Source: Candidatus Saccharimonadia bacterium
GTDB taxonomy: Bacteria > Patescibacteriota > Saccharimonadia > Saccharimonadales > 2-12-FULL-41-12
Direction of reading: 5' to 3'
DNA length: 36,140 bases
Assembly (NCBI GenBank): GCA_023263015.1
Contig: JALQXV010000087.1
Span: forward strand, 1 to 36,140
The translations under genes and the position numbers were made by a program. Of the stretch, positions 1 through 10,112 are shown piece after piece. Under the pieces are notes generated by a model. It was not told the origin of the DNA. It did not search any database and saw only the letters and a list, made by a program, of their open reading frames with translations. Numbering within the stretch: the first letter of the stretch is position 1; each line of letters starts with the position of its first letter.

Positions 1-1384
1 GTCGCTGACCAATAACCGTTCGCACTGTTGACGCGATCAGGAACGGCTCAATACCCATATCAAGTAGACGTGGCAAAATACCGGCTGCAGAGTTGGTGTG
101 TAGCGTGCTAAACACTAGGTGCCCTGTTAACGCAGCCTGAACCGCCAACTGAGCGGTTTCTTTGTCACGGATTTCCCCCACCATTACTACGTCAGGGTCC
201 TGACGCAAGATAGAACGCAGACCTGAAGCAAACGTTAATCCGACTTCGGCATTAACCTGAATCTGGTTAATACCATCCATCTTGTATTCAACTGGGTCTT
301 CAAGGGTAACAATGTTAATTGTGTCGCTTTTAATCTCGTTAAGAAGTGCATACAAGGATGTGGACTTACCTGAACCGGTTGGTCCTGATGTCAGAATCAT
401 GCCATTGGAGTTTTCGAGCCCCTTACGAATTGTGCGTAGTGCTCGACCGTGGTAACCCATATCTTCTAGTTTTAGGCTGGTACCCGACTTATCAAGCAAA
501 CGAATAACTACTTGCTCGCCCCATACCACTGGCGAAATAGAGATACGGAGGTCGACTGCCTTGTTCCCTACTGCAACTGTAAATTGACCATCCTGTGGAA
601 TACGATGTTCATCGATCTTTAGGTTACTTAAAATCTTAATACGAGAAATAAAAGCTGGCTCAATATTCTTTGGCAGCTTCATAATTTCTTTTAGCACACC
701 GTCGATACGACAGCGGATCTTAAGCTCTTTTTCGAGTGGCTCGATGTGAATATCGCTAGCACGACTCTTGGCCGCATACTCAAGAATAGTTGAAAGAGCT
801 TTACTAATTGGCGAGTCCTGAACAATCGTTGTGATCGTCTTATGTTCGTCATTAGCTGGCATTGCCTGCGTTGTCTCGGCTTCAACACTTAGCGAGCTCT
901 TAACATCGTTACCAATCGTCTTAGCTACGTCGGCCTCAACGTCCTCGGCGTACTGCTCAAGTATGTGGCGAATACCCTCTTCACTAGCTGTATAGACCTT
1001 TAACTGCCGTCCAATACGATTAGACAGGAAGTCTACCGCCTGCACGTTATCGGCATCAAGCATAGCAACAACTAGCTTTTGCTGGATCTGGCCAAGCGGC
1101 ACCGCCATATAACGTTCAGCAATATCCTTAGAAAGCAGCCGCAGCACATCCTTTTCAATACGCGCATCAAGTAAGTTCACATATGGTACGTGGTTTACTT
1201 TAGCCATGACTTTTGTCAAAGCCTCATTACTGACCAACTTCTGGTCAACCAAATAGCCAAAGAATGGCTTGCCTTCTTTATCGGCACTCTCTTTAGCAGC
1301 ATTCAATGCTGGCTCAGCAACAATACCCTCACTAACTAAGGTTTCTTCGACTTGTTTCTGGCTCGCTGCAGAAAGAACATTCAC
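1..1384 (-). CDS. pilB: Type IV pilus assembly ATPase PilB/GspE family (3' end runs off the window; C-terminus missing)
   Basis: My own minus-strand translation is open from a GTG at 1384 to position 1. N-terminus VNVLSAASQKQVEETLVSEGIV...RYMAVPLGQ resembles a T2SSE_N domain. Walker A GPTGSGKST is encoded around 362-385. Downstream ...ILRQDPDVVMVGEIRDKETAQLAVQAALTGHLVFSTLHTN is classic GspE/PilB. It is missing from the ORF track because no stop lies inside the window. Confidence 0.9.
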   Translation of the reverse strand, partial: MNVLSAASQKQVEETLVSEGIVAEPALNAAKESADKEGKPFFGYLVDQKLVSNEALTKVMAKVNHVPYVNLLDARIEKDVLRLLSKDIAERYMAVPLGQIQQKLVVAMLDADNVQAVDFLSNRIGRQLKVYTASEEGIRHILEQYAEDVEADVAKTIGNDVKSSLSVEAETTQAMPANDEHKTITTIVQDSPISKALSTILEYAAKSRASDIHIEPLEKELKIRCRIDGVLKEIMKLPKNIEPAFISRIKILSNLKIDEHRIPQDGQFTVAVGNKAVDLRISISPVVWGEQVVIRLLDKSGTSLKLEDMGYHGRALRTIRKGLENSNGMILTSGPTGSGKSTSLYALLNEIKSDTINIVTLEDPVEYKMDGINQIQVNAEVGLTFASGLRSILRQDPDVVMVGEIRDKETAQLAVQAALTGHLVFSTLHTNSAAGILPRLLDMGIEPFLIASTVRTVIGQR

Positions 1385-1397
1385 AACGCAAAGTTAC

Positions 1398-1634
1398 CTA
1401 AAATGGGTTAGCGTTAGCGTCTTCACCAATTTTAATCAATTGTGTTGGGTTGACCGCATCTTTATTGAATACTTTAGGGTCAGCTTCTTTAAACTCTGAA
1501 CTAATTGGCGAAACTTTTTCAACGGTTAGCTTACGATTCTTGTCGCCAGTAAAAAGTTTTTGGGATAAGAACAGCGAGAAAATACCCGCGATAGCGGCAA
1601 CAATTATAATTACTGCAAAGTCTTTTTGTTTCAT
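1398..1634 (-). CDS. Small bitopic membrane protein in the pilus operon (function unknown; occupies the slot where pilP would sit)
   Basis: 78-aa ORF with one N-terminal TM segment (FAVIIIVAAIAGIFSLFL). Its ATG overlaps the TGA of the upstream pilO-like gene (ATGA at 1631-1634). It ends 13 nt before the pilB GTG. Confidence 0.6.
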   Translation of the reverse strand: MKQKDFAVIIIVAAIAGIFSLFLSQKLFTGDKNRKLTVEKVSPISSEFKEADPKVFNKDAVNPTQLIKIGEDANANPF

Positions 1635-2299
1635 TTTGCCCTCTCCGACGTGATATCAAACTTCTTAGGTGGCTGGAAGTATGTTTTTGCGTTCACATTT
1701 AACTTCACACCCTGCGCATTTGACGTTAGGGTTAACTTATTAACCTGGATTGGTCGTATTGATCGCTCAAATAACTTGAGTGCATCTTTACTGGATTGTG
1801 CAGAAGCATCAAGTGTGACACTAAATGGAATTTCTACAACTGTCGGGCTTGAAGATGGCTCTGCAGCCGACTGAGTTAACTCATCGTCGCTACCGGTTAA
1901 GCCCGAAACTTTGTAGTCCTTAAACATCTTAGTAAGGCTAGTTGTTAAGCCTGGGAAGTCATATTTACTTGGTAACGCATCAAGTACGATTCGCGGGTTT
2001 TCGCCATCAAGGTCTCCGGTACCGTCAGCTGCTCCACCAAGAATATTTGTCTTTTGCTCGGCAAAGGCTTGATATGAATTCCTTAGCTTCTCTGCCTCGG
2101 TAGCATTCTTTTTAACTTGCTTTAGCGTAGCCTTTTTCTTGCTTATAACACCCGCTTGGTAACTACTCTGACTTAATAGTGACTTCGATGCTACAAGCGA
2201 AAATACTGTCAAGAATGAAGCAAGCCCAATAACAATAAGAATTGTTGTATTGTCTTTATTAATAGCCAATTGCTTAAGAGATACTCGTTGTGCCGCCAT
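1631..2299 (-). CDS. pilO: PilO-like type IV pilus alignment protein (bitopic, coiled-coil plus C-terminal globular domain)
   Basis: Sits directly after pilN. Has an N-terminal TM (ILIVIGLASFLTVFSLVA), then a K/A/E-rich helical stretch and a C-terminal domain. I prefer the ATG at 2299 (MAAQRVSLKQL) because a GGAGGG Shine-Dalgarno lies about 9 nt upstream. The track start at 2335 would overlap pilN by 35 nt. Confidence 0.6.
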   Translation of the reverse strand: MAAQRVSLKQLAINKDNTTILIVIGLASFLTVFSLVASKSLLSQSSYQAGVISKKKATLKQVKKNATEAEKLRNSYQAFAEQKTNILGGAADGTGDLDGENPRIVLDALPSKYDFPGLTTSLTKMFKDYKVSGLTGSDDELTQSAAEPSSSPTVVEIPFSVTLDASAQSSKDALKLFERSIRPIQVNKLTLTSNAQGVKLNVNAKTYFQPPKKFDITSERAK

Positions 2300-2300
2300 A

Positions 2301-3017
2301 TTATTGACCCTCCTTCTTTTGAGGTTGTGATTCAAACAAGTTAGCCGGCTTTTCTGTCTCTGAGCGGGTTGAAGTAATCTTTGGAACTGTTAAGGTGACT
2401 GCCTCTTGGTTATTTTCTGTTGCAACCTGAGTAAATATTGCTGGTTCGAATGAGAATGTAATACTATATGCTGCTTTATCACTAGAGCCTGTTCCATCAG
2501 GAATGGTATAGCTTGCAAGCACAACGTTCTTAAAGGCTTTTTGTGAAGAGTCACTGCCAGCAACCTTATACTCTGTGAACTTGACTGTATCAACAAATTT
2601 ATTGATCACAATAATGTCTACTGCGTTTCCAGTTATGGTCATTGTACTGCCTTCAAAATCTACAGCCACATCAGATATAGTTGCTTGATTAGGGGTAATC
2701 TTTGTTAGATAGTCCGATAGCCTTGATGCAACAACTTTTTTATCGTGCAGTTCAGGCAAGCTATTCAGTTGATTCTGAATTGTAAGAATCTTATCCAAAT
2801 CTTGAATAGACTGCACTTTTGTAACATTAGTTTTAATGTCTTTGTCTAAGTTCTTAATTTCACGAGTCTGGTTAACTCGTACGAACAAGAATAGGATTAC
2901 AAAGATCGCTAAACACGCCGCTGTGATTATTGCCGATATAAACATAATTAAGCGTTTGCGGTAGCGCGTCTTAATGTATTCAATCTTTACGTCTGGGAGG
3001 AGGTTGAACTGAATCAT
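2301..3017 (-). CDS. pilN: PilN-type fimbrial assembly protein
   Basis: N-terminal IQFNLLPD motif (PilN INLLP signature) followed by a TM (LIMFISAIITAACLAIFVILFLF). Sits directly after pilM. I prefer the ATG at 3017 because GGAGAGGA lies 9 nt upstream; the track start at 3026 abuts that SD. Confidence 0.75.
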   Translation of the reverse strand: MIQFNLLPDVKIEYIKTRYRKRLIMFISAIITAACLAIFVILFLFVRVNQTREIKNLDKDIKTNVTKVQSIQDLDKILTIQNQLNSLPELHDKKVVASRLSDYLTKITPNQATISDVAVDFEGSTMTITGNAVDIIVINKFVDTVKFTEYKVAGSDSSQKAFKNVVLASYTIPDGTGSSDKAAYSITFSFEPAIFTQVATENNQEAVTLTVPKITSTRSETEKPANLFESQPQKKEGQ

Positions 3018-3018
3018 A

Positions 3019-4059
3019 CTATTCATTCCTCTCCGCTAAACCAACAGCAACACCAAAGTGGTTAGACAAGGCCATTAGCTCGTTCTGACGCTCTAGACCG
3101 TACTGAACATTACGCCACGCATTACCAATTTCGACATTAATACCGAATTTGTTCGCGATGTGCAGTGGGAATTCTGGTAGCGCCGATGCACCACCGGTCA
3201 TAATAATTCGTTCAATCTTGGTATTGTTATAGCGAGTCTGGAAGAACTTAATTGATTTATCGATGTCACCCATCAAAAGATCTACCGTACCAACAATCGC
3301 TTGGTACACCTGCCCTTCCAGCTTTTGCTGGCTCAAACCAAATTTAAATACAAATTCTTGAGCTTGCTTATCATCAATATTAAGGTTCTGCTGTGCAGCC
3401 TTAATAATAGCTTCTGAACCAGTTGGGATAGCGCGCGTTAAGCGTGGAATACCTCCCATAACAACTACGATATCGGTGCTCTTGCTACCAATATCGATGA
3501 CCATTTGTGGCTCAGTTGAAAGCGGGTCTGTAACAGAACGAACTAGGGCGAGGTTATCTGACTCAAACGCAATCACATTAAGACCAAGTGACTCTAACAT
3601 GTCTAGACGGTCTTCGATGAACGCGTTAGGTACACTAGAAAGCAATACTTCTACCTTGTTTGGGTCAACTGGTGAATCACCAATATGCGCCCAGTCAAGC
3701 TTTGATTCCGATAGTGGAGTCGGAATCAAGGAGTCGGCTTGGAACTTAATTGTCTTGGCAAGTTCTGCTGCAGATAGTCGTTCAATATCAACCACGGTAG
3801 TGAACACACGTGACGAAGGCAAGCCGACTGCAACGTTTTTTGTAGTGATCTTAGCCTGATCAAGCATAGTTCTGATCTGCTCAGCTATTTTTTGCTGGTC
3901 GGCTTTAGCATCACTTAAGGCAACCTTGCTATCGATTGGAGTCATCGCATAACGCATTAGTTGCTTAGATTTAGGGTTGTTTGTTATTTGGACAGCTCGT
4001 ATAGCACTCGTGCCTACGTCCAAGCCAAAGAATTCAGATACCCCACTCAGTAAACTCAT
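3019..4059 (-). CDS. pilM: PilM, actin-like ATPase of the type IV pilus alignment complex
   Basis: 346 aa. N-terminal FGLDVGTSAIRAV phosphate-1-like motif and a later IDIGSKSTDIVV motif. Length and position upstream of pilN are typical of PilM. Confidence 0.85.
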   Translation of the reverse strand: MSLLSGVSEFFGLDVGTSAIRAVQITNNPKSKQLMRYAMTPIDSKVALSDAKADQQKIAEQIRTMLDQAKITTKNVAVGLPSSRVFTTVVDIERLSAAELAKTIKFQADSLIPTPLSESKLDWAHIGDSPVDPNKVEVLLSSVPNAFIEDRLDMLESLGLNVIAFESDNLALVRSVTDPLSTEPQMVIDIGSKSTDIVVVMGGIPRLTRAIPTGSEAIIKAAQQNLNIDDKQAQEFVFKFGLSQQKLEGQVYQAIVGTVDLLMGDIDKSIKFFQTRYNNTKIERIIMTGGASALPEFPLHIANKFGINVEIGNAWRNVQYGLERQNELMALSNHFGVAVGLAERNE

Positions 4060-4148
4060 TCTTATCTAATCCTATTCTTGCTGCTTTTTCTTCTTTTAAT
4101 GTTATTGGTTACTATTCCCTGTCAGTATATCATACCGCTCATGCTTTT

Positions 4149-7100
4149 CTATAGCACTGGAGCTAAGATCGAGATGTACTGATAGTCACCGCTTGTTTGG
4201 GTACTATTGGCACGGAATACAGGTGGCGAAAGGTAGACTTCTGGGCTGAATTTAAAGGTTTCTGCAGCCTTAGTGTTGTTAGCTTCTTCCCTGAAGAGTG
4301 AGTCACGAAGTGAATAACCAGTTCTGTTAAGAACAACTCTCTGGGCTATAAACGAGCCGTTAACCGTTAGTTGGCGTCGTGGTGATGAGGCAGGATTATC
4401 CTGAGCACCACACTCAGTAAATAGGCTGGTTGGTGCTGTAACTGGGTTATCGCCAGAGCTCTCTAGAGCACATGTATAAATTCGGCCGCTATTTGATCGT
4501 GCATCTGGTTGAGCAATATAGGTCCCATCCAATTGAGTAACATCGTTATCGATATAAATGTTACCTTTTACAACCAATGTGAAGTTAGGAATACTTGCAG
4601 TGCCTGCACCGTAACTTGTCCTGTACATCAAGTTGTTTAAGATAAAGACATCGCCATCTACATACACAGTGTGTCGTCGATCGTACTGAGCAACATTACT
4701 ACCGACAATCCGCAGCTTATTGCCAGATATATTACGCACTGTCTGCTTCTCATTTTCTAGATTGAATGGATCAATACTTGCTGTTGAAGAAGAAACATTC
4801 TTTCTATCGTTCTCAACGAACTGAGTGCTACTGAAGTAGTCTGGCATACACCAACCGTCGCCCGACATGTTTCCACCCAAGAGCGGATCGTTTGACTGCG
4901 CAGGTGCCGAGTTATTGTGTGCAAAAGTTAAACCTTTTGGCTCTTGTACGTTAGGAGGGCCGGTACGTGTACTCGCTGTTGTGTAGCCTCGAATCTCTCC
5001 AAGAGCAAAGGCAGCCAACTGACCACCGGAACCACTCTGTCCGTCGGGGGCACCACTAATGTGGTACTGCATTGGTCGCATGAATGAAAGGATCTTTGAA
5101 TCGGTGCGTCCACAACTAGTTCCAAAACCGCCACCGGCAGCAACGTCACCACCATACGTCCTTATGTATGGCCTATTTACTACAGAAGGAGTTGGGTTAC
5201 AGATTGCACCCGCTTCACAAGGACGACCACAACTATTCGCTTGAGCCGGACCTTCGTTGGCATACTTTCCGTTACCTGGGCCTCGCCAACCATGGCCATA
5301 GTCTAGTGTTATATAAACACAGTAGATATCACCTAACTGGGATGTATTAGCTGGGATGTTATAAGTGTCCGTATAGTCTCTGTTCCCGAAATTCGTTGTG
5401 TCGTTAAATGGTCCAAATGGTATTGGCTGCTCTGCTCCACCCTTTGGTCGCTTATAAAAGTCTCGTCGGGCATTGCTATCGACATCAACTCCACGCTGAG
5501 TAATTGATGTCCGGAACTCAGCCTGCGTAGGGCTTTCTGCATTATCTAATGAACCACGAGCCGCTGCCGTAAAGTCGTATCGCTGATACGCCTCTACTTC
5601 GGTCTGACAAATGCCTCCGAGCGCCATCCTGCCCCAGAAATCAGGGTAGCCTGCTACTGTCGTGACACCTCTTGTCCCTGGTGCAGTAAACGTCATGGTA
5701 GACGTCGCACTACCACCGCGAGGGATATTAAGGTACGGATCATAACTAAAGTCGAATGGTGGATAGTCGTAGTTACCACCTCCATCGGTCATCGTTAGCT
5801 GGTTGCCCCCAAGGGAGTCAGGTATGCCTAGATTCTCGGTTACTGCTTGGCCGGCTAGGCTCCACGTACCGGTACCGCCTCGTGGTTTTTCAGGGTGGTT
5901 ATATACGAATACCGGTATTGCTGCTGCGGGATTATGAATTGTCGCATTCACGTTGAAATTCTCGCCAGCTTTAACGCCCTTATCTGGTGAACCTGGCAAG
6001 TTTTCAATAACGTCTAAGCTACAAGAAGCCTGTAGACAGCCACCTTCAACTTCAGCGCTGTAATACCACCTTGGGTTTGCGTCCCCGCCGTTGCCATTAA
6101 CAACATCGTATGCACCGATATGCATCGCCCATCCGTTATTAGCACCATCTTCGTTGCCCCATGGCCACGGAATCGTATAGCCATCATTTATGTCATCGAC
6201 ATGCCAATCCCAGTTAGCATCGCCGACATCTGCAAATGATTCAACGCCATTGCCATCTACATTTCTATGGAAGAAACGAGCAAACACCTGTAGGCCGTAC
6301 CCTCCGTCTTGAGGATCATCTATGTTCTGTATTGTTACGCCACTACATGTAACGTGAAGCGTGAAGTGAGGCGGAGTCGGTGGAGGCTGACAAGGGTTAG
6401 GGCTTCTACCATAGGTCTCACGGTCTTTTTCATGCCATGCATTCGTTTGCGTATCCTGCACTTCTAGGATGAATGTTATCCTCCCATTTGAGTACGCATC
6501 GTAAATACCAGCAAGACCTGGGACACTATAGTTTTTATATGCAGTTGGGTCCCCTGTATGTGTTCGTTCTGATATAACAGAACTTGTTCCGTTACCGCTA
6601 CTGTTTATGCGACTAACACGTATCTTGGTGTTATCTGTTGGATCCCGATCATAGCCCCTCAAGCGAATATATTCAGATCCCTGCAGGCAAACAACTTTAT
6701 TAATATCACCTTCCGGCTCAGTATTGAACTCACATGAACCATCTGGGTCACGTTCATACGGTGAAACCATCTTAATAGCATTGCCACCGTCGATACCAGT
6801 CCAGCGAACTTCATAACTGTCATATTCCGGCTCCAATCTAATACCAATACGGCCATTCTTCCCTTGACCTCCAACATTATCAACTGGGTCTAGTTTATAA
6901 GGTTTGTTCGAGTTTTTCTTCTTTCTCACTATTTGAATCTTGGCATTCTTATTACGATTGTCGCCGTTGCCATCGTCGGCATCATTCCACTTAAAATAAA
7001 CAACACGTCGAGCCTGCAAATCGCTACATGCTGGATCAAATGTTACTTCATAAGGGCTGCCCGCCCAGACAGTGAATGAGCTATTATCATCCGTACCATT

Positions 7101-7595
7101 AAAATCAGACTCAAACTTACGAGGGTTCTCTAAGGGTGTGATAGTAGAAAGCGGAAGCGGAGATTCAGCGTATACCTTGAAAGGTTGATGACCTTGCCCG
7201 TTAATTTTTCTAGCGACAAGTGTTCGGTTGACTGCTGTATTCTTAAAAATAAGTCCTCGATAATTTTGACCATTATCTCCCCGGTAATTCTCGCAGTCGC
7301 TATTGCTAGATTTCGTAACACCATCATATGTGACTGACATACCGGCAACACCACCAGTTTGGTCGTCACATGCACCATCAACAATGACTGTTGCTCTGTT
7401 AGTATTTTGGCCTTTTATCTTGAGGCGTGTTTCAGTCGCGCTAATATTTGCATTAGGACCTTGGATTGCAACAGACAAAGATCGCCCAAAACTTTCACTA
7501 TAGGCGTACGCAACAGACGTGTTAAGGAACAGCCCTCCTAGCACTGAGACAAATCCAGCGATAAGCAGCTTATGGTATATATTAAGTCGTCGCAT
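4149..7595 (-). CDS. Large (1148 aa) secreted Cys-rich protein of unknown family, encoded directly upstream of pilM
   Basis: Uninterrupted 3.4-kb ORF. N-terminal signal-like sequence MRRLNIYHKLLIAGFVSVLGGLFLNTSVAYA. Rich in G/N/D/Y/W with about 20 Cys. PPPTPP linker encoded near 6365-6398. No prepilin motif, ATPase motif or secretin-like motif recognised. Confidence 0.85.
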   Translation of the reverse strand: MRRLNIYHKLLIAGFVSVLGGLFLNTSVAYAYSESFGRSLSVAIQGPNANISATETRLKIKGQNTNRATVIVDGACDDQTGGVAGMSVTYDGVTKSSNSDCENYRGDNGQNYRGLIFKNTAVNRTLVARKINGQGHQPFKVYAESPLPLSTITPLENPRKFESDFNGTDDNSSFTVWAGSPYEVTFDPACSDLQARRVVYFKWNDADDGNGDNRNKNAKIQIVRKKKNSNKPYKLDPVDNVGGQGKNGRIGIRLEPEYDSYEVRWTGIDGGNAIKMVSPYERDPDGSCEFNTEPEGDINKVVCLQGSEYIRLRGYDRDPTDNTKIRVSRINSSGNGTSSVISERTHTGDPTAYKNYSVPGLAGIYDAYSNGRITFILEVQDTQTNAWHEKDRETYGRSPNPCQPPPTPPHFTLHVTCSGVTIQNIDDPQDGGYGLQVFARFFHRNVDGNGVESFADVGDANWDWHVDDINDGYTIPWPWGNEDGANNGWAMHIGAYDVVNGNGGDANPRWYYSAEVEGGCLQASCSLDVIENLPGSPDKGVKAGENFNVNATIHNPAAAIPVFVYNHPEKPRGGTGTWSLAGQAVTENLGIPDSLGGNQLTMTDGGGNYDYPPFDFSYDPYLNIPRGGSATSTMTFTAPGTRGVTTVAGYPDFWGRMALGGICQTEVEAYQRYDFTAAARGSLDNAESPTQAEFRTSITQRGVDVDSNARRDFYKRPKGGAEQPIPFGPFNDTTNFGNRDYTDTYNIPANTSQLGDIYCVYITLDYGHGWRGPGNGKYANEGPAQANSCGRPCEAGAICNPTPSVVNRPYIRTYGGDVAAGGGFGTSCGRTDSKILSFMRPMQYHISGAPDGQSGSGGQLAAFALGEIRGYTTASTRTGPPNVQEPKGLTFAHNNSAPAQSNDPLLGGNMSGDGWCMPDYFSSTQFVENDRKNVSSSTASIDPFNLENEKQTVRNISGNKLRIVGSNVAQYDRRHTVYVDGDVFILNNLMYRTSYGAGTASIPNFTLVVKGNIYIDNDVTQLDGTYIAQPDARSNSGRIYTCALESSGDNPVTAPTSLFTECGAQDNPASSPRRQLTVNGSFIAQRVVLNRTGYSLRDSLFREEANNTKAAETFKFSPEVYLSPPVFRANSTQTSGDYQYISILAPVL

Positions 7596-8215
7596 TATCG
7601 GGAGCCTCCATCATCACTTTTTACAAATTCTTGGAGTTCAGGGCTTAAAGACTGCAAATCTTTAGGCTCCTTGTTCTTTGGGGCAGAATTTGGATCAGCA
7701 ACATAACCTCTGAGCACCTTTAGTGTTGCGTCCACTGAAGGTATGGCTTCTTTGTCGTCTTGATCTTCACTTGAAACATACAAAGCTCGCAACTGTTCAT
7801 AGCTAGACAATGCTTCAGGATATTGATTTAGCTCGTAATAGCAGCCTGCTCTGTAGCTTACGAGTGATATGTTGTCTGATGGATTGTCGTTATCTGACTT
7901 AGCATCCTTTAGCTTCTCCACTGCAGTTTTGCAGTTCTTCTCATCCATTACTTTTCGCAGCTCTTCTCGACTAATAGTCTTGTTCACGTTACTTGGCTGC
8001 GAATTATCTTGAGACTTTTTATCAAGAACGCCTGTAAGCAATAAAACAATACAAATTGTTGCTAGCGCAATAATTGAAATTCCTAATACAATACGTTTCT
8101 TATACTGTTTTGCTTTTAAATTAAAAGACAAGGTCTTTTTAGAACTACTCGAAGCAGTCTGATCTATGACCTTGTCTTTAGAATCTTTAGCTAGCTTTGT
8201 TTTTCCAAACTTCAT
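7595..8215 (-). CDS. Membrane-anchored protein with TPR-like helical ectodomain
   Basis: 206 aa. K/S-rich N-terminus, one TM (IVLGISIIALATICIVLLLTGVL), then a helical region with a TPR-like segment (YRAGCYYELNQYPEALSSYEQLRALY). Its TAA overlaps the ATG of the 1148-aa gene (TAATG at 7595). Confidence 0.7.
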   Translation of the reverse strand: MKFGKTKLAKDSKDKVIDQTASSSSKKTLSFNLKAKQYKKRIVLGISIIALATICIVLLLTGVLDKKSQDNSQPSNVNKTISREELRKVMDEKNCKTAVEKLKDAKSDNDNPSDNISLVSYRAGCYYELNQYPEALSSYEQLRALYVSSEDQDDKEAIPSVDATLKVLRGYVADPNSAPKNKEPKDLQSLSPELQEFVKSDDGGSR

Positions 8216-8287
8216 TGGTGCCCTTTGAGTATCTAGGGCATATTGTACATGCTTAAAGCGTAAGCAGCAACACCGTTATGTGAACTG

Positions 8288-9376
8288 TTAGCAAATCTTC
8301 TTTGGAGCAGAAGTGAATGTTCTAGAGCCTGACTTCATAACATCACTGCGGCCGTCCGCATTGTGCTGGAAGGTTTGAGATTTCATTGCCACGAAACGAG
8401 ATATAACTTTAACTCGTGCTCGAACGTTCTTTCCGCCGCCTACGCAAACACCTTCTACGTTAGGGATTGTAACTTTTGGCTGGAGGTATTTTTCTGGAGC
8501 CTTATAGCTAAATGATAGTATTTCGGGAAGACTTGTAACGTGGATTACACTGTTACCAACTTGCTTAAAGGCCTTGCCCTTACCTTTACTTACTTGCACG
8601 CTTAGTTCTTGATGACTTTGTCCAACTTTGTCGCAGTACTCTACGCCGCCACCACTCCAAACCTTAGCACTAACAGACTTGTTAGCCTTGTTATAGGTGA
8701 ACGTAGGATTAGGTGTTTGATTCTTAGGATCTTGAGGGCATGTATCAAATAGTGCCTTGCCACTTCTGTCGCCAAGCCACTCATTTGAGCCTCGCAATGG
8801 ATCGCTCTGGAAACTGGCCAATGGACCAGCAGTGCCAGCTGACTTAAGACTAGAAAAATCTACTGCCTTAAAGCTTGGGCAGAAAACTGCATCGGCTTTG
8901 TTACCGTCTTTTAATGTGATCGACTTAAAGCCAATCTTGTAGCTAGTTTTAGAAGGAGCAGGACATACATATGAGACTTGAGTACTTCCATCAGGAAGCT
9001 GTTGGGCTGATTCAACTTTTTGCGTTACATCTGTGCTTACACCAGGGATAGAATTAATCACCTTAGCGCCAAACTGGTCAGTTGTTACAGGATCGCCTAC
9101 CTGAGCGGCTCGTACTGCAGGCGTCAGATCATCTATATATAGGTTAGTTGCACTTGATTCTACTACCTTAGCTGGTGCGGCATTCGCTTTTGATACACCG
9201 ATTGCTGCTGTTGCTGCAAGCGTTGCACCAAGTGCAGACGCTGCTACAAATAATCTATTTTCTGCCAATCCGGCAAAAAGTCCGCGTTCGGCTGTTGCGG
9301 CATCGCCTAAATGTGCTACACTTAAGTCTTGCCCTTGAGTCAGAACAGCTTCGTGGGAAAAGTCTCGTTCATTCAT
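8288..9376 (-). CDS. Secreted or membrane-anchored protein of unknown family (about 362 aa)
   Basis: Has a hydrophobic segment LFVAASALGATLAATAAIGV followed by SKANA-AP, a signal-peptidase-like site. The mature part has 8 Cys and no motif I recognise. I prefer the ATG at 9376 (MNERDF), with AGGAG 8 nt upstream, over the track TTG at 9400. Confidence 0.7.
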   Translation of the reverse strand: MNERDFSHEAVLTQGQDLSVAHLGDAATAERGLFAGLAENRLFVAASALGATLAATAAIGVSKANAAPAKVVESSATNLYIDDLTPAVRAAQVGDPVTTDQFGAKVINSIPGVSTDVTQKVESAQQLPDGSTQVSYVCPAPSKTSYKIGFKSITLKDGNKADAVFCPSFKAVDFSSLKSAGTAGPLASFQSDPLRGSNEWLGDRSGKALFDTCPQDPKNQTPNPTFTYNKANKSVSAKVWSGGGVEYCDKVGQSHQELSVQVSKGKGKAFKQVGNSVIHVTSLPEILSFSYKAPEKYLQPKVTIPNVEGVCVGGGKNVRARVKVISRFVAMKSQTFQHNADGRSDVMKSGSRTFTSAPKKIC

Positions 9377-9458
9377 CTCATGATCTCCTAATATTGTCAA
9401 TTCGCATTATACCAAAGAACTAGTGTTTTGTCAATTTTTCGTAATTGTTACATAATAT

Positions 9459-10112
9459 CTACCACGACAGAGATATATTCTTCATTTGCTCAACAACTTC
9501 ATCATGGTCAGGCAAGGTATTTTCATCGTAATAGTGCGTAATTGGAAAGTCTGATTCGATCATATTGAGACATAGGAAGTTGGAAGATAGGCTTCTTACC
9601 CGCTCCATTACATCCTCAGAACAAAGCGGAGTGGCTATAATTAACTCCTTAGTAAGCACCGGCTTTAAAAAGTCTGCCGCTACATCAAGCGACAAGCCAT
9701 TCGCAATGCCATCCGACACTACAATAACTACATGGCGCTTGAGTAGATTCTTATCAATCACACCGTCTTTACTGATGATTCGGTTTAGTTTTTGGAAGGT
9801 TTCGAGTCGGAGCTGATCAATAACAGTACGAGATTCAACCGACACTACTTCTAGATCCGCCGCAGACATGGCGTGATTATACGTAAAAGTGCCTGCTGAG
9901 CTCATAGAAGCTAGGGGCACTAATTCTCGAGGTAGAGTCAGGTGCTCAACAGTGAGCATGTATAAAGAAGCGTGGATTTTCTTGGCAATCTCGGCCCCTA
10001 CGGCCGCTCCACCTTCTCCAATTGCTAAGACCGCACAATTTAGACGCTGGTAGTCAGTCATCTGTTCGGCAAGTAGCATGCCTGCTTCGGCGCGGTCTTT
10101 AAAGTAGCGCAT
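9459..10112 (-). CDS. Phosphoribosyltransferase-domain protein with a degenerate PRPP loop
   Basis: 217 aa. The N-terminal YFKDRAEAGMLLAEQM is typical of the 'putative phosphoribosyltransferase' family. The PRPP-loop position reads VVIVVSDGIANGLS instead of the usual hhhhDD-G-x-A-T-G-x-T. Confidence 0.55.
   Translation of the reverse strand: MRYFKDRAEAGMLLAEQMTDYQRLNCAVLAIGEGGAAVGAEIAKKIHASLYMLTVEHLTLPRELVPLASMSSAGTFTYNHAMSAADLEVVSVESRTVIDQLRLETFQKLNRIISKDGVIDKNLLKRHVVIVVSDGIANGLSLDVAADFLKPVLTKELIIATPLCSEDVMERVRSLSSNFLCLNMIESDFPITHYYDENTLPDHDEVVEQMKNISLSW

Follow-up and report, generated by a model that had tools for sequence, protein, structure and literature searches.

The window analysed here is a stretch of 36,140 nucleotides (contig JALQXV010000087.1 of assembly GCA_023263015.1, Candidatus Saccharimonadia bacterium), and on its minus strand lies a gene for a protein of 1148 amino acids, called the giant below, at the head of a group of type IV pilus (T4P) genes (Table 1). 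The gene is real: its reading frame is unbroken over 1148 codons. An earlier note on this DNA, made from the sequence without database searches, had placed it before pilM, and pilM is indeed found immediately downstream. Judged from its sequence matches, the giant belongs to a very large, unnamed and Saccharibacteria-wide family, and the association of this family with the T4P system is well supported. With belief and doubt about equally weighted, we propose that the giant is a Sec-exported non-pilin accessory of the Saccharibacterial type IVa pilus and a non-homologous functional analogue of the tip adhesins PilY1, PilC and MshQ.

Table 1. Features of the giant gene and its neighbours in the window, listed from the promoter to pilB
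Feature	Position	Strand	Evidence and remarks
Sigma-70-type promoter, TTGACA-17-TATAAT with extended -10 TG	9406..9434	(-)	12/12 consensus; sole perfect site in 1300-9700
370-aa open reading frame (ORF), first gene after the promoter	8288..9400	(-)	signal- or transmembrane-like N-terminal stretch; no Pfam or NCBIfam match
Partner ORF, 206 aa	7595..8215	(-)	Lys-rich N-terminus, transmembrane helix at about residues 42-64, ectodomain resembling tetratricopeptide repeats (TPR); TPR_2 E 0.004, sub-threshold
Giant gene, secreted multi-domain all-beta protein, 1148 aa	4149..7595	(-)	uninterrupted ORF and AlphaFold2 (AF2) model
Sec-type signal peptide, residues 1-31	7503..7595	(-)	predicted cleavage between AYA and YS; not a prepilin leader
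N-terminal beta head domain, residues 32-290	6726..7502	(-)	AF2; predicted local distance difference test (pLDDT) mostly 80-94
Stalk, residues 295-790, four beta-sandwich domains (~295-400, 410-520, 524-660, 663-790) like immunoglobulin (Ig), fibronectin type III (FN3) or macroglobulin (MG) domains	5226..6713	(-)	AF2; pLDDT dips at linkers
Family-defining C-terminal module, residues 796-1137	4185..5210	(-)	conservation, AF2
Beta-solenoid-like core, residues ~961-1100	4296-4715	(-)	rungs YVDGDVFI, VVKGNIYI, LDGTYIAQ, GRIYTC, TVNGSFIA
Extreme C-terminal peptide YQYISILAPVL, residues 1138-1148, proposed docking strand	4152..4184	(-)	most conserved stretch; conservation and model
pilM, 346 aa, 89 nt downstream of the giant	3019..4059	(-)	PF11104 E 1.4e-40; TIGR01175 161 bits against a cut-off of 133
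pilN-like, 241 aa	2301..3026	(-)	weak PilN match; position conserved in ~70 loci
pilO/T2SS-M-like, 234 aa	1631..2335	(-)	weak T2SSM match; PilO match in the orthologue of locus L001
78-aa single-transmembrane ORF between pilO and pilB	1398..1634	(-)	conserved position
pilB-type assembly ATPase, N-terminal 464 aa, runs off the window	1..1393	(-)	Walker A GPTGSGKS; 60-87% identity to the loci

For the search of sequence space, a family profile was built from the giant and its three closest relatives (4 sequences) and compared exhaustively by HMMER with 1.84 billion representatives of clusters formed at 50% identity. The profile matched 3194 clusters at E<=1e-3, of which 2858 remained at E<=1e-10 and 1977 at E<=1e-30; nearly all the matched representatives come from Candidatus Saccharibacteria, and none is named. 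Family members are mostly 900-1400 aa long, and most of the 150 best matches align only over profile positions ~560-1116, i.e., the C-terminal half. Every sampled member that carries a source name is a "hypothetical protein", and eight diverse members had no Pfam domain above cut-off. The giant itself gave no match in scans with Pfam (E<=1) and NCBIfam, and none below E 0.1 in a sequence search of PDB. The earlier statement that there is no recognisable family therefore stands for these curated libraries, but it fails in sequence space with the 3194 family clusters, and the giant is no orphan. A scan of one genome per GTDB species with C-terminal motif patterns recovered 80 loci, 75 of Saccharibacterial type and five of Planctomycetota (weak, core only). 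The alignment A2 was too diverse for the design of patterns, and the scan succeeded with C-terminal patterns alone. Of the 75 Saccharibacterial loci, 66 bear the label Candidatus Saccharibacteria, Saccharimonadales or Saccharimonadia; the others are labelled Patescibacteria or unclassified, or bear evidently mis-binned labels; one locus of Saccharibacterial type is a complete genome (CP025011.1). The window protein shows what defines the family, namely the Sec signal, the C-terminal module, the terminal tail and a position upstream of pilM, and the window PilM is 84% identical to that of a metagenome-assembled genome (MAG) of Candidatus Saccharibacteria, from which a Saccharibacterial origin of the window follows. 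A search of the accessible literature found no description of a large non-pilin pilus-operon protein in Patescibacteria.

A fast word-indexed search found three relatives with the single protein, and 3-5 when the 45-sequence profile was used as well, as against more than 3000 by exhaustive HMMER. The G/N/S/T-rich biased sequence probably fills the candidate list of the word search with spurious matches, and "orphan" verdicts from such searches are untrustworthy for proteins so biased. Three loci named Candidatus Dormiibacterota (L035), Candidatus Pristimantibacillus sp. (L039) and Nevskiaceae bacterium (L056) carry the Saccharibacteria-type block of giant, pilM, pilN, pilO and pilB, with PilM 66-68% identical to that of the window, and their MAG labels are probably binning errors.

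Linkage with the pilus genes was examined by tblastn with the neighbours in the window. pilM lies downstream on the same strand in 71 of the 78 Saccharibacteria-type loci, at a median gap of 147 nt, and is followed by pilN, pilO, the 78-aa ORF and pilB. Four contigs end too early and three loci are exceptions, so that the linkage amounts to 71 of 74 informative loci (96%), among which PilM identity is as low as 53%. At one locus (L001), where pilB has the MshEN and T2SSE domains, the full operon could be followed; it continues with pilB, pilT, pilC, a canonical pilin (NEGFTIIEV), a prepilin peptidase (PilD), a 276-aa minor pilin and a 437-aa pilin-like protein.

The giant is, as far as its sequence tells, of the Sec-exported type and not a pilin. 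The signal-like N-terminus ending in AYA that had been noticed earlier (MRRLNIYHKLLIAGFVSVLGGLFLNTSVAYA, followed by YSE) combines a basic n-region with a hydrophobic h-region and a site of the AxA-like type, and AF2 places there a single helix (residues 4-24, 21 residues) with beta structure only thereafter. A Sec-type N-terminus is present in 92 of 101 family members and a prepilin motif in none of the 101; the Pfam and NCBIfam scans of the giant found no N_methyl (PF07963 / TIGR02532), PilX_N or Tad segment. An LPXTG signal with a hydrophobic segment and a basic tail is likewise absent, the protein stopping at ...LAPVL-COOH with nothing beyond.

Conservation rises along the chain. The mean frequency of the commonest residue starts at 0.20-0.27 in the first three domains (D1-D3) and climbs through 0.33-0.36 in D4-D5 and 0.40 in the opening part of the C-terminal module to 0.49 in its solenoid core and 0.55 over the last 48 residues. 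At the very end, 96 of the 101 members terminate exactly in Y-D-[Y/S/A]-I-T-[S/T]-L-P-P-[I/V]-L-COOH, with 3-4.3 bits per position. Among 5514 six-frame ORFs of all fetched loci this motif is confined to family members or their fragments, and no pilin-like ORF within the fetched flanks carries it as a cis version. The pLDDT of the tail is below 50 in both monomer models (the full-length protein and the C-terminal module). Tandem paralogues in the same genome are 40-78% identical across the entire C-terminal 340 aa, while at the N-terminus only 59-263 residues can be aligned, at 27-46% identity; in a complete genome (L055), the values are 78% for the C-terminal part versus 34% over 59 N-terminal residues. 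By these sequence comparisons, the layout of the family is a variable head, a constant anchor and a conserved tail.

The full-length AF2 model, which was based on a 45-sequence alignment, has a mean pLDDT of 80.8 and a predicted template modelling (TM) score (pTM) of 0.48, and is all-beta after the signal helix. The residue composition (G 10.9%, N 8.1%, S 7.4%, T 7.3%, D 6.9%, Y 4.9%, W 1.2%) bears out the enrichment in G, N, D and Y that had been remarked earlier but not that in W, and the cysteines number 18, an even number at conserved positions, instead of about 20, although their close clustering was seen correctly (C520/C525 and C789/C793/C799). The PPPTPP hinge suspected near 6365-6398 is located at 6369-6386 (residues 404-409), where it coincides with an inter-domain linker of low pLDDT in the model. 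All four recurring C-terminal motifs quoted in the earlier note were also located, YGGDVAAGGGF at residues 814-824, VYVDGDVFILNN at 978-989, FTLVVKGNIYIDNDVTQLDGTYIAQ at 1005-1029 and LTVNGSFIAQRVVLNRTG at 1076-1093 (nt ~4317-5156).

In the head, the motifs W-x-DADDG-x-GDN-x-NKNA (invariant) and GGNAIKM..PYE occur in a form that, in the alignment, is common to only the three closest relatives, and motif patterns from this region (YFKWxDAD, GDNxNKNA) found no relative in 185,579 species genomes. The acidic loop W-x-D-A-D-D-G-x-G-D-N-x-N-K-N-A (residues ~201-213, 6960-6995 (-)) is like a Ca2+-binding loop and misfits the canonical DxDxDG spacing. A Foldseek search with the whole model against PDB and BFVD returned Ig/FN3/MG arrays with E down to 1e-12 and a TM score of ~0.1, including complement C3/C5, A2ML1, phage fibre and minor tail proteins. 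Because the TM score is only ~0.1, this likeness is that of a generic beta-sandwich stalk, and a relationship to complement, alpha-2-macroglobulin or phage-fibre proteins was rejected. Arrays of this kind are known from adhesins and phage fibres, and one family member (P0024) has a weak CARDB match.

The C-terminal module, modelled separately from 28 fragments, reached a pTM of 0.76 with core pLDDT of 80-96. A Cys pair (C1042/C1062) is invariant in the solenoid-like core, as are D817, R1091 and E1112 in the module. A Foldseek search with residues 796-1148 against PDB gave no significant neighbour (all E>1, best E 1.7), and the module profile had no match among PDB sequences; as modelled, the module appears to fit no solved structural family. 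The weak neighbours are nearly all beta-solenoids (left-handed helices of the gamma-carbonic-anhydrase type, ice-binding proteins, a two-partner secretion hemolysin, a family-3 pectate lyase at E 6.6, an autotransporter and a tailspike at E 9.6), which makes the earlier "beta-helix-like" impression of this beta-rich region a reasonable one, even though none of them is significant. No significant structural or sequence similarity to any enzyme was found.

Some family members, the window protein not among them, have an insertion of ~150-190 aa in the C-terminal module between LRTxxTLRD and AAExF..PExYL (P0002, P0003, P0006, P0018, P0029, P0041, P0050, P0053, P0074, P0110, P0130 and P0139; examples are L002:879-4781 and L003:2932-6822). 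The insertion contains three Cys/Trp-rich repeats (C..YE..DP.W....DN[YF]LC, C.SLNNP.E...W.DN..C and C.NI.E....WG.N..LC), and this three-fold repeat suggests a beta-trefoil-like lectin insert.

The core of the module has relatives within pilin-like proteins. The five Planctomycetota matches are proteins of ~475-525 aa with a PilX/GspK-like N-terminus (e.g., RRRGSVLLTALIGVMVVGALAA...YVAEAGMSEA). One or two genes of prepilin type lie ahead of theirs (RRGFTLVE, RAGFTLVE; N_methyl 30.4 bits, cut-off 21.2), and two of the proteins carry the JGI name "Tfp pilus assembly protein PilX". By hhalign, the C-terminal module of the window protein matched this Planctomycetota family at 97.3% (E 1.7e-11, 215 columns), and the comparison of profile with profile gave 97.0% (E 8e-11, 122 columns, including the VVKGNIYI, GxIY and VNG rungs); tblastn matches to the Planctomycetota loci L079-L083 had E 5e-7 to 8e-5. 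The shared motif series, YxDGxxxI ... VVKGNIYI ... GNIY ... VTVNG, is present in the window protein. These alignments indicate that the C-terminal core is homologous to the solenoid of the Planctomycetota PilX-like pseudopilins, at the domain level only. Both kinds of protein occur in a pilus or pseudopilus gene context, but the Planctomycetota proteins are shorter, begin with a hydrophobic PilX/GspK-like segment and end in ...SWREV..P; the giant, by contrast, begins with a Sec signal, lacks any pilin-like domain, carries five additional beta domains on its N-terminal side and ends in the LPP[IV]L tail. The earlier impression of a minor-pilin- or TadG-like capping protein thus has a real basis because of this homologous core, although the giant itself is no pilin.

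In two Planctomycetota loci (L084:6810-10972 and L085:3866-8028), the PilX-like solenoid protein (482 aa) belongs to a four-gene cassette away from pilus machinery genes; its companions are two prepilin-type proteins of 185 and 217 aa and a protein of 502 aa that has no Pfam match. The solenoid protein has at least 670 relatives, and the source-named ones are almost all "hypothetical protein".

A second, non-significant resemblance is to ComZ of Thermus thermophilus, a pilin associated with the tip of the competence pilus, in whose fold a large beta-solenoid is inserted (PMC6561018). ComZ (PDB 6QVI) tops the Foldseek list of the C-terminal module (E 1.7, probability 0.08, TM score 0.18; non-significant), and the Planctomycetota profile matches ComZ at E 0.5, also non-significant, at the transition from pilin sheet to solenoid. 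The coincidence of the two signals is suggestive only. ComZ is a T4P tip protein with a beta-solenoid, and the module of the giant is modelled as beta-solenoid-like; unlike the giant, ComZ is a true pilin and binds DNA.

The giant is closely coupled to the small ORF ahead of it (Table 1). The TAA stop of this partner overlaps the ATG of the giant (TAATG), and a GGAGG Shine-Dalgarno sequence lies 9 nt upstream of the ATG. Of 56 intact family members, 46 have a small ORF directly adjoining or overlapping their start, mostly of 150-215 aa and usually with one transmembrane helix, and pairs of partner and giant are found in one to three tandem copies ahead of pilM. TPR scores were above Pfam cut-offs in two of ten tested partners (L033 and L047), and one passes TPR_21. 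When only the ectodomains were compared, single linkage joined 28 of the 46 partners at E<=1e-3, with a strict TPR-type core of 17-20. A first iterative search had united 40 of the 46 in one family; this was rejected as too lenient after a control with the transmembrane region removed and a conservative database size. TPR domains characteristically bind extended or C-terminal peptides, and TPR pilotins (PilF/PilW/Tgl) assemble the secretin PilQ in diderms. At five loci, an abutting ORF of ~300-350 aa stands in place of the one of ~180 aa (L012:12517-13524, L014:6081-7124, L016:5413-6306, L020:5749-6663 and L053:4687-5631); these five group together by sequence and represent a second kind of upstream partner.

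Among known tip proteins, PilY1/PilC is a close parallel in design. In PilC/PilY1 the last ~10-12 residues complete the beta-sheet of a PilK-type minor pilin and so fix the adhesin at the tip; MshQ (~1200 aa) is predicted by modelling to donate its extreme C-terminus to the PilK homologue MshP, and in GspK and CpaL/TadG the strand is provided in cis (bioRxiv 10.64898/2026.02.14.705861). PilY1/PilC proteins share with the giant their large size (~1000-1200 aa), Sec export and non-pilin nature, a variable N-terminal adhesive part and a conserved C-terminal part, a conserved extreme C-terminal peptide of ~10-12 residues, genes in pilus clusters, sometimes as several paralogous sets, and a small co-encoded helper, for which TfcP of M. 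xanthus, a small accessory protein supporting PilY1, is the precedent (PMC8833165). They differ in having a seven-bladed beta-propeller where the giant is modelled with a beta-solenoid-like module, and the gene of the giant precedes pilMNO instead of following the minor pilins, in a monoderm-like lineage of the candidate phyla radiation (CPR). No match to PF05567 (Neisseria_PilC) was found in the Pfam scan and no PilY1/PilC chain among the Foldseek matches. The earlier note had drawn the parallel to PilY1/PilC-type adhesins while disclaiming homology; the disclaimer was right, and the parallel holds for the Sec signal, the non-pilin nature, the T4P linkage and the layout but not for membership of the PilY1/PilC family. 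MshQ, a functional analogue of PilY1 according to AlphaFold modelling, is of similar size, non-pilin and encoded in a pilus locus; it differs in locus position, and no MshQ-type NCBIfam or Pfam match was found in the giant, only curated models having been compared.

Within the phylum, comparable proteins are PilX1 of Nanosynbacter lyticus TM7x, a proposed tip adhesin with a lectin-like domain in the 13-gene T4P locus 1 (PMC11623550), and SEML1_0116 of S. epibionticum. These belong to the same pilus system, have no predicted PilD-type signal and are the largest "pilin" of locus 1, but they have ~384 aa, a GspK-like pilin fold with a galactose-binding-like domain, and a place at the 3' end of the locus, whereas the giant, at three times that size, lacks a pilin fold and is encoded at the 5' end. 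In SEML1_0116, ECOD assigns residues 326-345 again to the pilin domain. That the giant is simply the TM7x "PilX1" was rejected on these grounds.

The functional analogy to PilY1, PilC and MshQ is proposed because the giant is a Sec-exported non-pilin, has a variable N-terminal and a conserved C-terminal part, ends in a near-invariant, apparently unstructured tail, is encoded in a pilus operon together with pilin-like proteins and has a pseudopilin-related module. By this analogy, the strong promoter at the operon head would transcribe the giant together with pilMNO-pilB, and its translation would be coupled to that of the membrane-anchored TPR-like partner. After export and signal cleavage, the solenoid core and the 11-residue tail would attach the giant to the minor-pilin complex that primes or caps the pilus, most likely because a PilK/GspK-like minor pilin takes up the terminal peptide as a donated beta-strand, and the TPR partner may hold this peptide beforehand as a chaperone. 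The variable head on its Ig-like stalk would then be presented at the pilus tip and bind the surface of the host bacterium, and tandem paralogues with different heads would widen the range of targets.

A further-reaching version, which we offer tentatively and regard as doubtful, would make the family an independent second invention of a large non-pilin tip adhesin, arising by fission of a solenoid minor pilin of the PilX/GspK type. Solenoid and docking strand would have moved to a Sec-secreted protein whose Ig-stalk and head modules can be exchanged, a dedicated TPR chaperone in the membrane would keep the peptide until hand-over, and tandem head cassettes would set the host range of environmental episymbiotic Saccharibacteria.

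Several facts count against the proposed tip-adhesin analogue. The giant gene is at the 5' end next to pilMNO, whereas pilY1 and mshQ are usually neighbours of the minor pilins. Pro-Pro in the tail is unusual inside a beta-strand, and for this reason only the Y-D-x-I-T-S part could form one. The ComZ signals are individually non-significant. In the control with the transmembrane segment removed, the window partner links robustly to its two closest relatives only; position, coupling and architecture of the partners are conserved, and their common descent is only partly shown by the sequences. At three loci, family members occur with no pilM downstream (L020:6660-9362, L043:1236-2240 and L062:4-891), and these are unlinked copies or relocated paralogues; the genes downstream of the L020 member are PIN, MFS, PGI and others. 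Finally, the gene ahead of pilM in cultured S. epibionticum, a species with essential T4P genes, is ychF and not the giant (Table S1 of PMC10633639), and the published description of TM7x locus 1 gives 13 genes without the giant and leaves no room for it (PMC11623550). Since it is missing upstream of pilM in both, the giant is not required for pilus assembly as such and is to be regarded as an accessory, not as a core component.

The same absence bears on the best surviving alternative, in which the giant is a structural, envelope-associated component of the pilus machine, for example a collar, a conduit or an anchor that spans the thick wall or surface layer of the monoderm-like Saccharibacteria, with the TPR partner as a pilotin-like protein. 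Its place next to the alignment-complex genes pilM/N/O instead of the minor pilins suits such a part, as do the strong conservation of the C-terminal half and the coupled membrane TPR partner, which may be compared with the TPR pilotins for PilQ. We consider it unlikely, however, given that S. epibionticum and, by description, TM7x have a functional and essential T4P while lacking the giant upstream of pilM, that hypervariable N-terminal parts and one to three tandem paralogues with different heads are atypical of a core component, that Pfam, NCBIfam and Foldseek gave no secretin similarity, and that the core is homologous to a protein of a pseudopilin cassette.

More improbable is that the giant is a cargo or effector of the pilus acting as a secretion device, i.e., a substrate as in the type II secretion system (T2SS) or a wall-acting enzyme, like a beta-helix lyase or hydrolase or a wall-binding protein, pushed or released onto the host. 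The right-handed beta-helix is classic for pectate lyases and phage depolymerases, and proteins of this kind are found among the weak Foldseek neighbours; D817, R1091 and E1112 could be catalytic, and operon linkage equally fits a substrate. The best lyase-type match nevertheless stays at the non-significant E 6.6, a catalytic domain would be expected to be the most conserved part, yet that part is an 11-residue terminal peptide predicted to be disordered, and the homologous core in Planctomycetota sits inside a PilX-like pseudopilin.

Least probable by a little is that the giant works independently of the pilus, as an adhesin of the cell surface or a surface-layer protein, and only happens to be in the same transcription unit. 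Ig-like arrays in a Cys-rich secreted protein are a generic feature of surface proteins, unlinked copies occur at three loci, and a pilin motif is absent. This reading is at odds with the pilM linkage kept across dozens of divergent species-level genomes, the conserved organisation of the junction, the pseudopilin-related core, and the lack of a wall-anchoring signal and of any transmembrane segment or charged end after LPP[IV]L.

How ultrasmall episymbiotic Patescibacteria recognize and hold their hosts is an open question, and type IV pili are the sole appendage experimentally shown to matter. The experimental pilus work has all been done in oral model strains that lack the giant at the locus, and the family has never been studied because the cultured oral Saccharibacteria do not have the gene there. 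What is new is an unannotated family of more than 3000 clusters (at 50% identity) in the pilus operon of environmental Saccharibacteria, with a constant anchor, variable heads and an 11-residue terminal peptide that provides a precise docking hypothesis. Its novelty would be that of a tip-adhesin-like T4P accessory on a new fold in a new lineage, a function we infer from sequence, context and analogy. If this is true, beta-strand complementation of tip adhesins also applies in a CPR lineage and on a fold other than the propeller, the variable heads are candidates for what determines host range, and the family merits a curated Pfam or NCBIfam model.

Other features of the neighbourhood complete the picture of the operon. 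The promoter at 9406-9434 is likely to start a transcript that covers the giant gene and continues into pilMNO-pilB, and no terminator was found between the giant and pilM. The 370-aa ORF that follows the promoter has counterparts (tblastn) only at the loci L001-L003, in the same position and with 35-39% identity, and may be a third, lineage-specific component of the cassette. The 78-aa ORF has counterparts in ~65 loci, which are nearly all the Saccharibacterial loci, with 31-58% identity, and its counterpart in S. epibionticum (SEML1_0107, 228 nt, "hypothetical protein") is essential in transposon sequencing (PMC10633639). This small ORF possibly represents an unnamed, PilP-like core component of the T4P.

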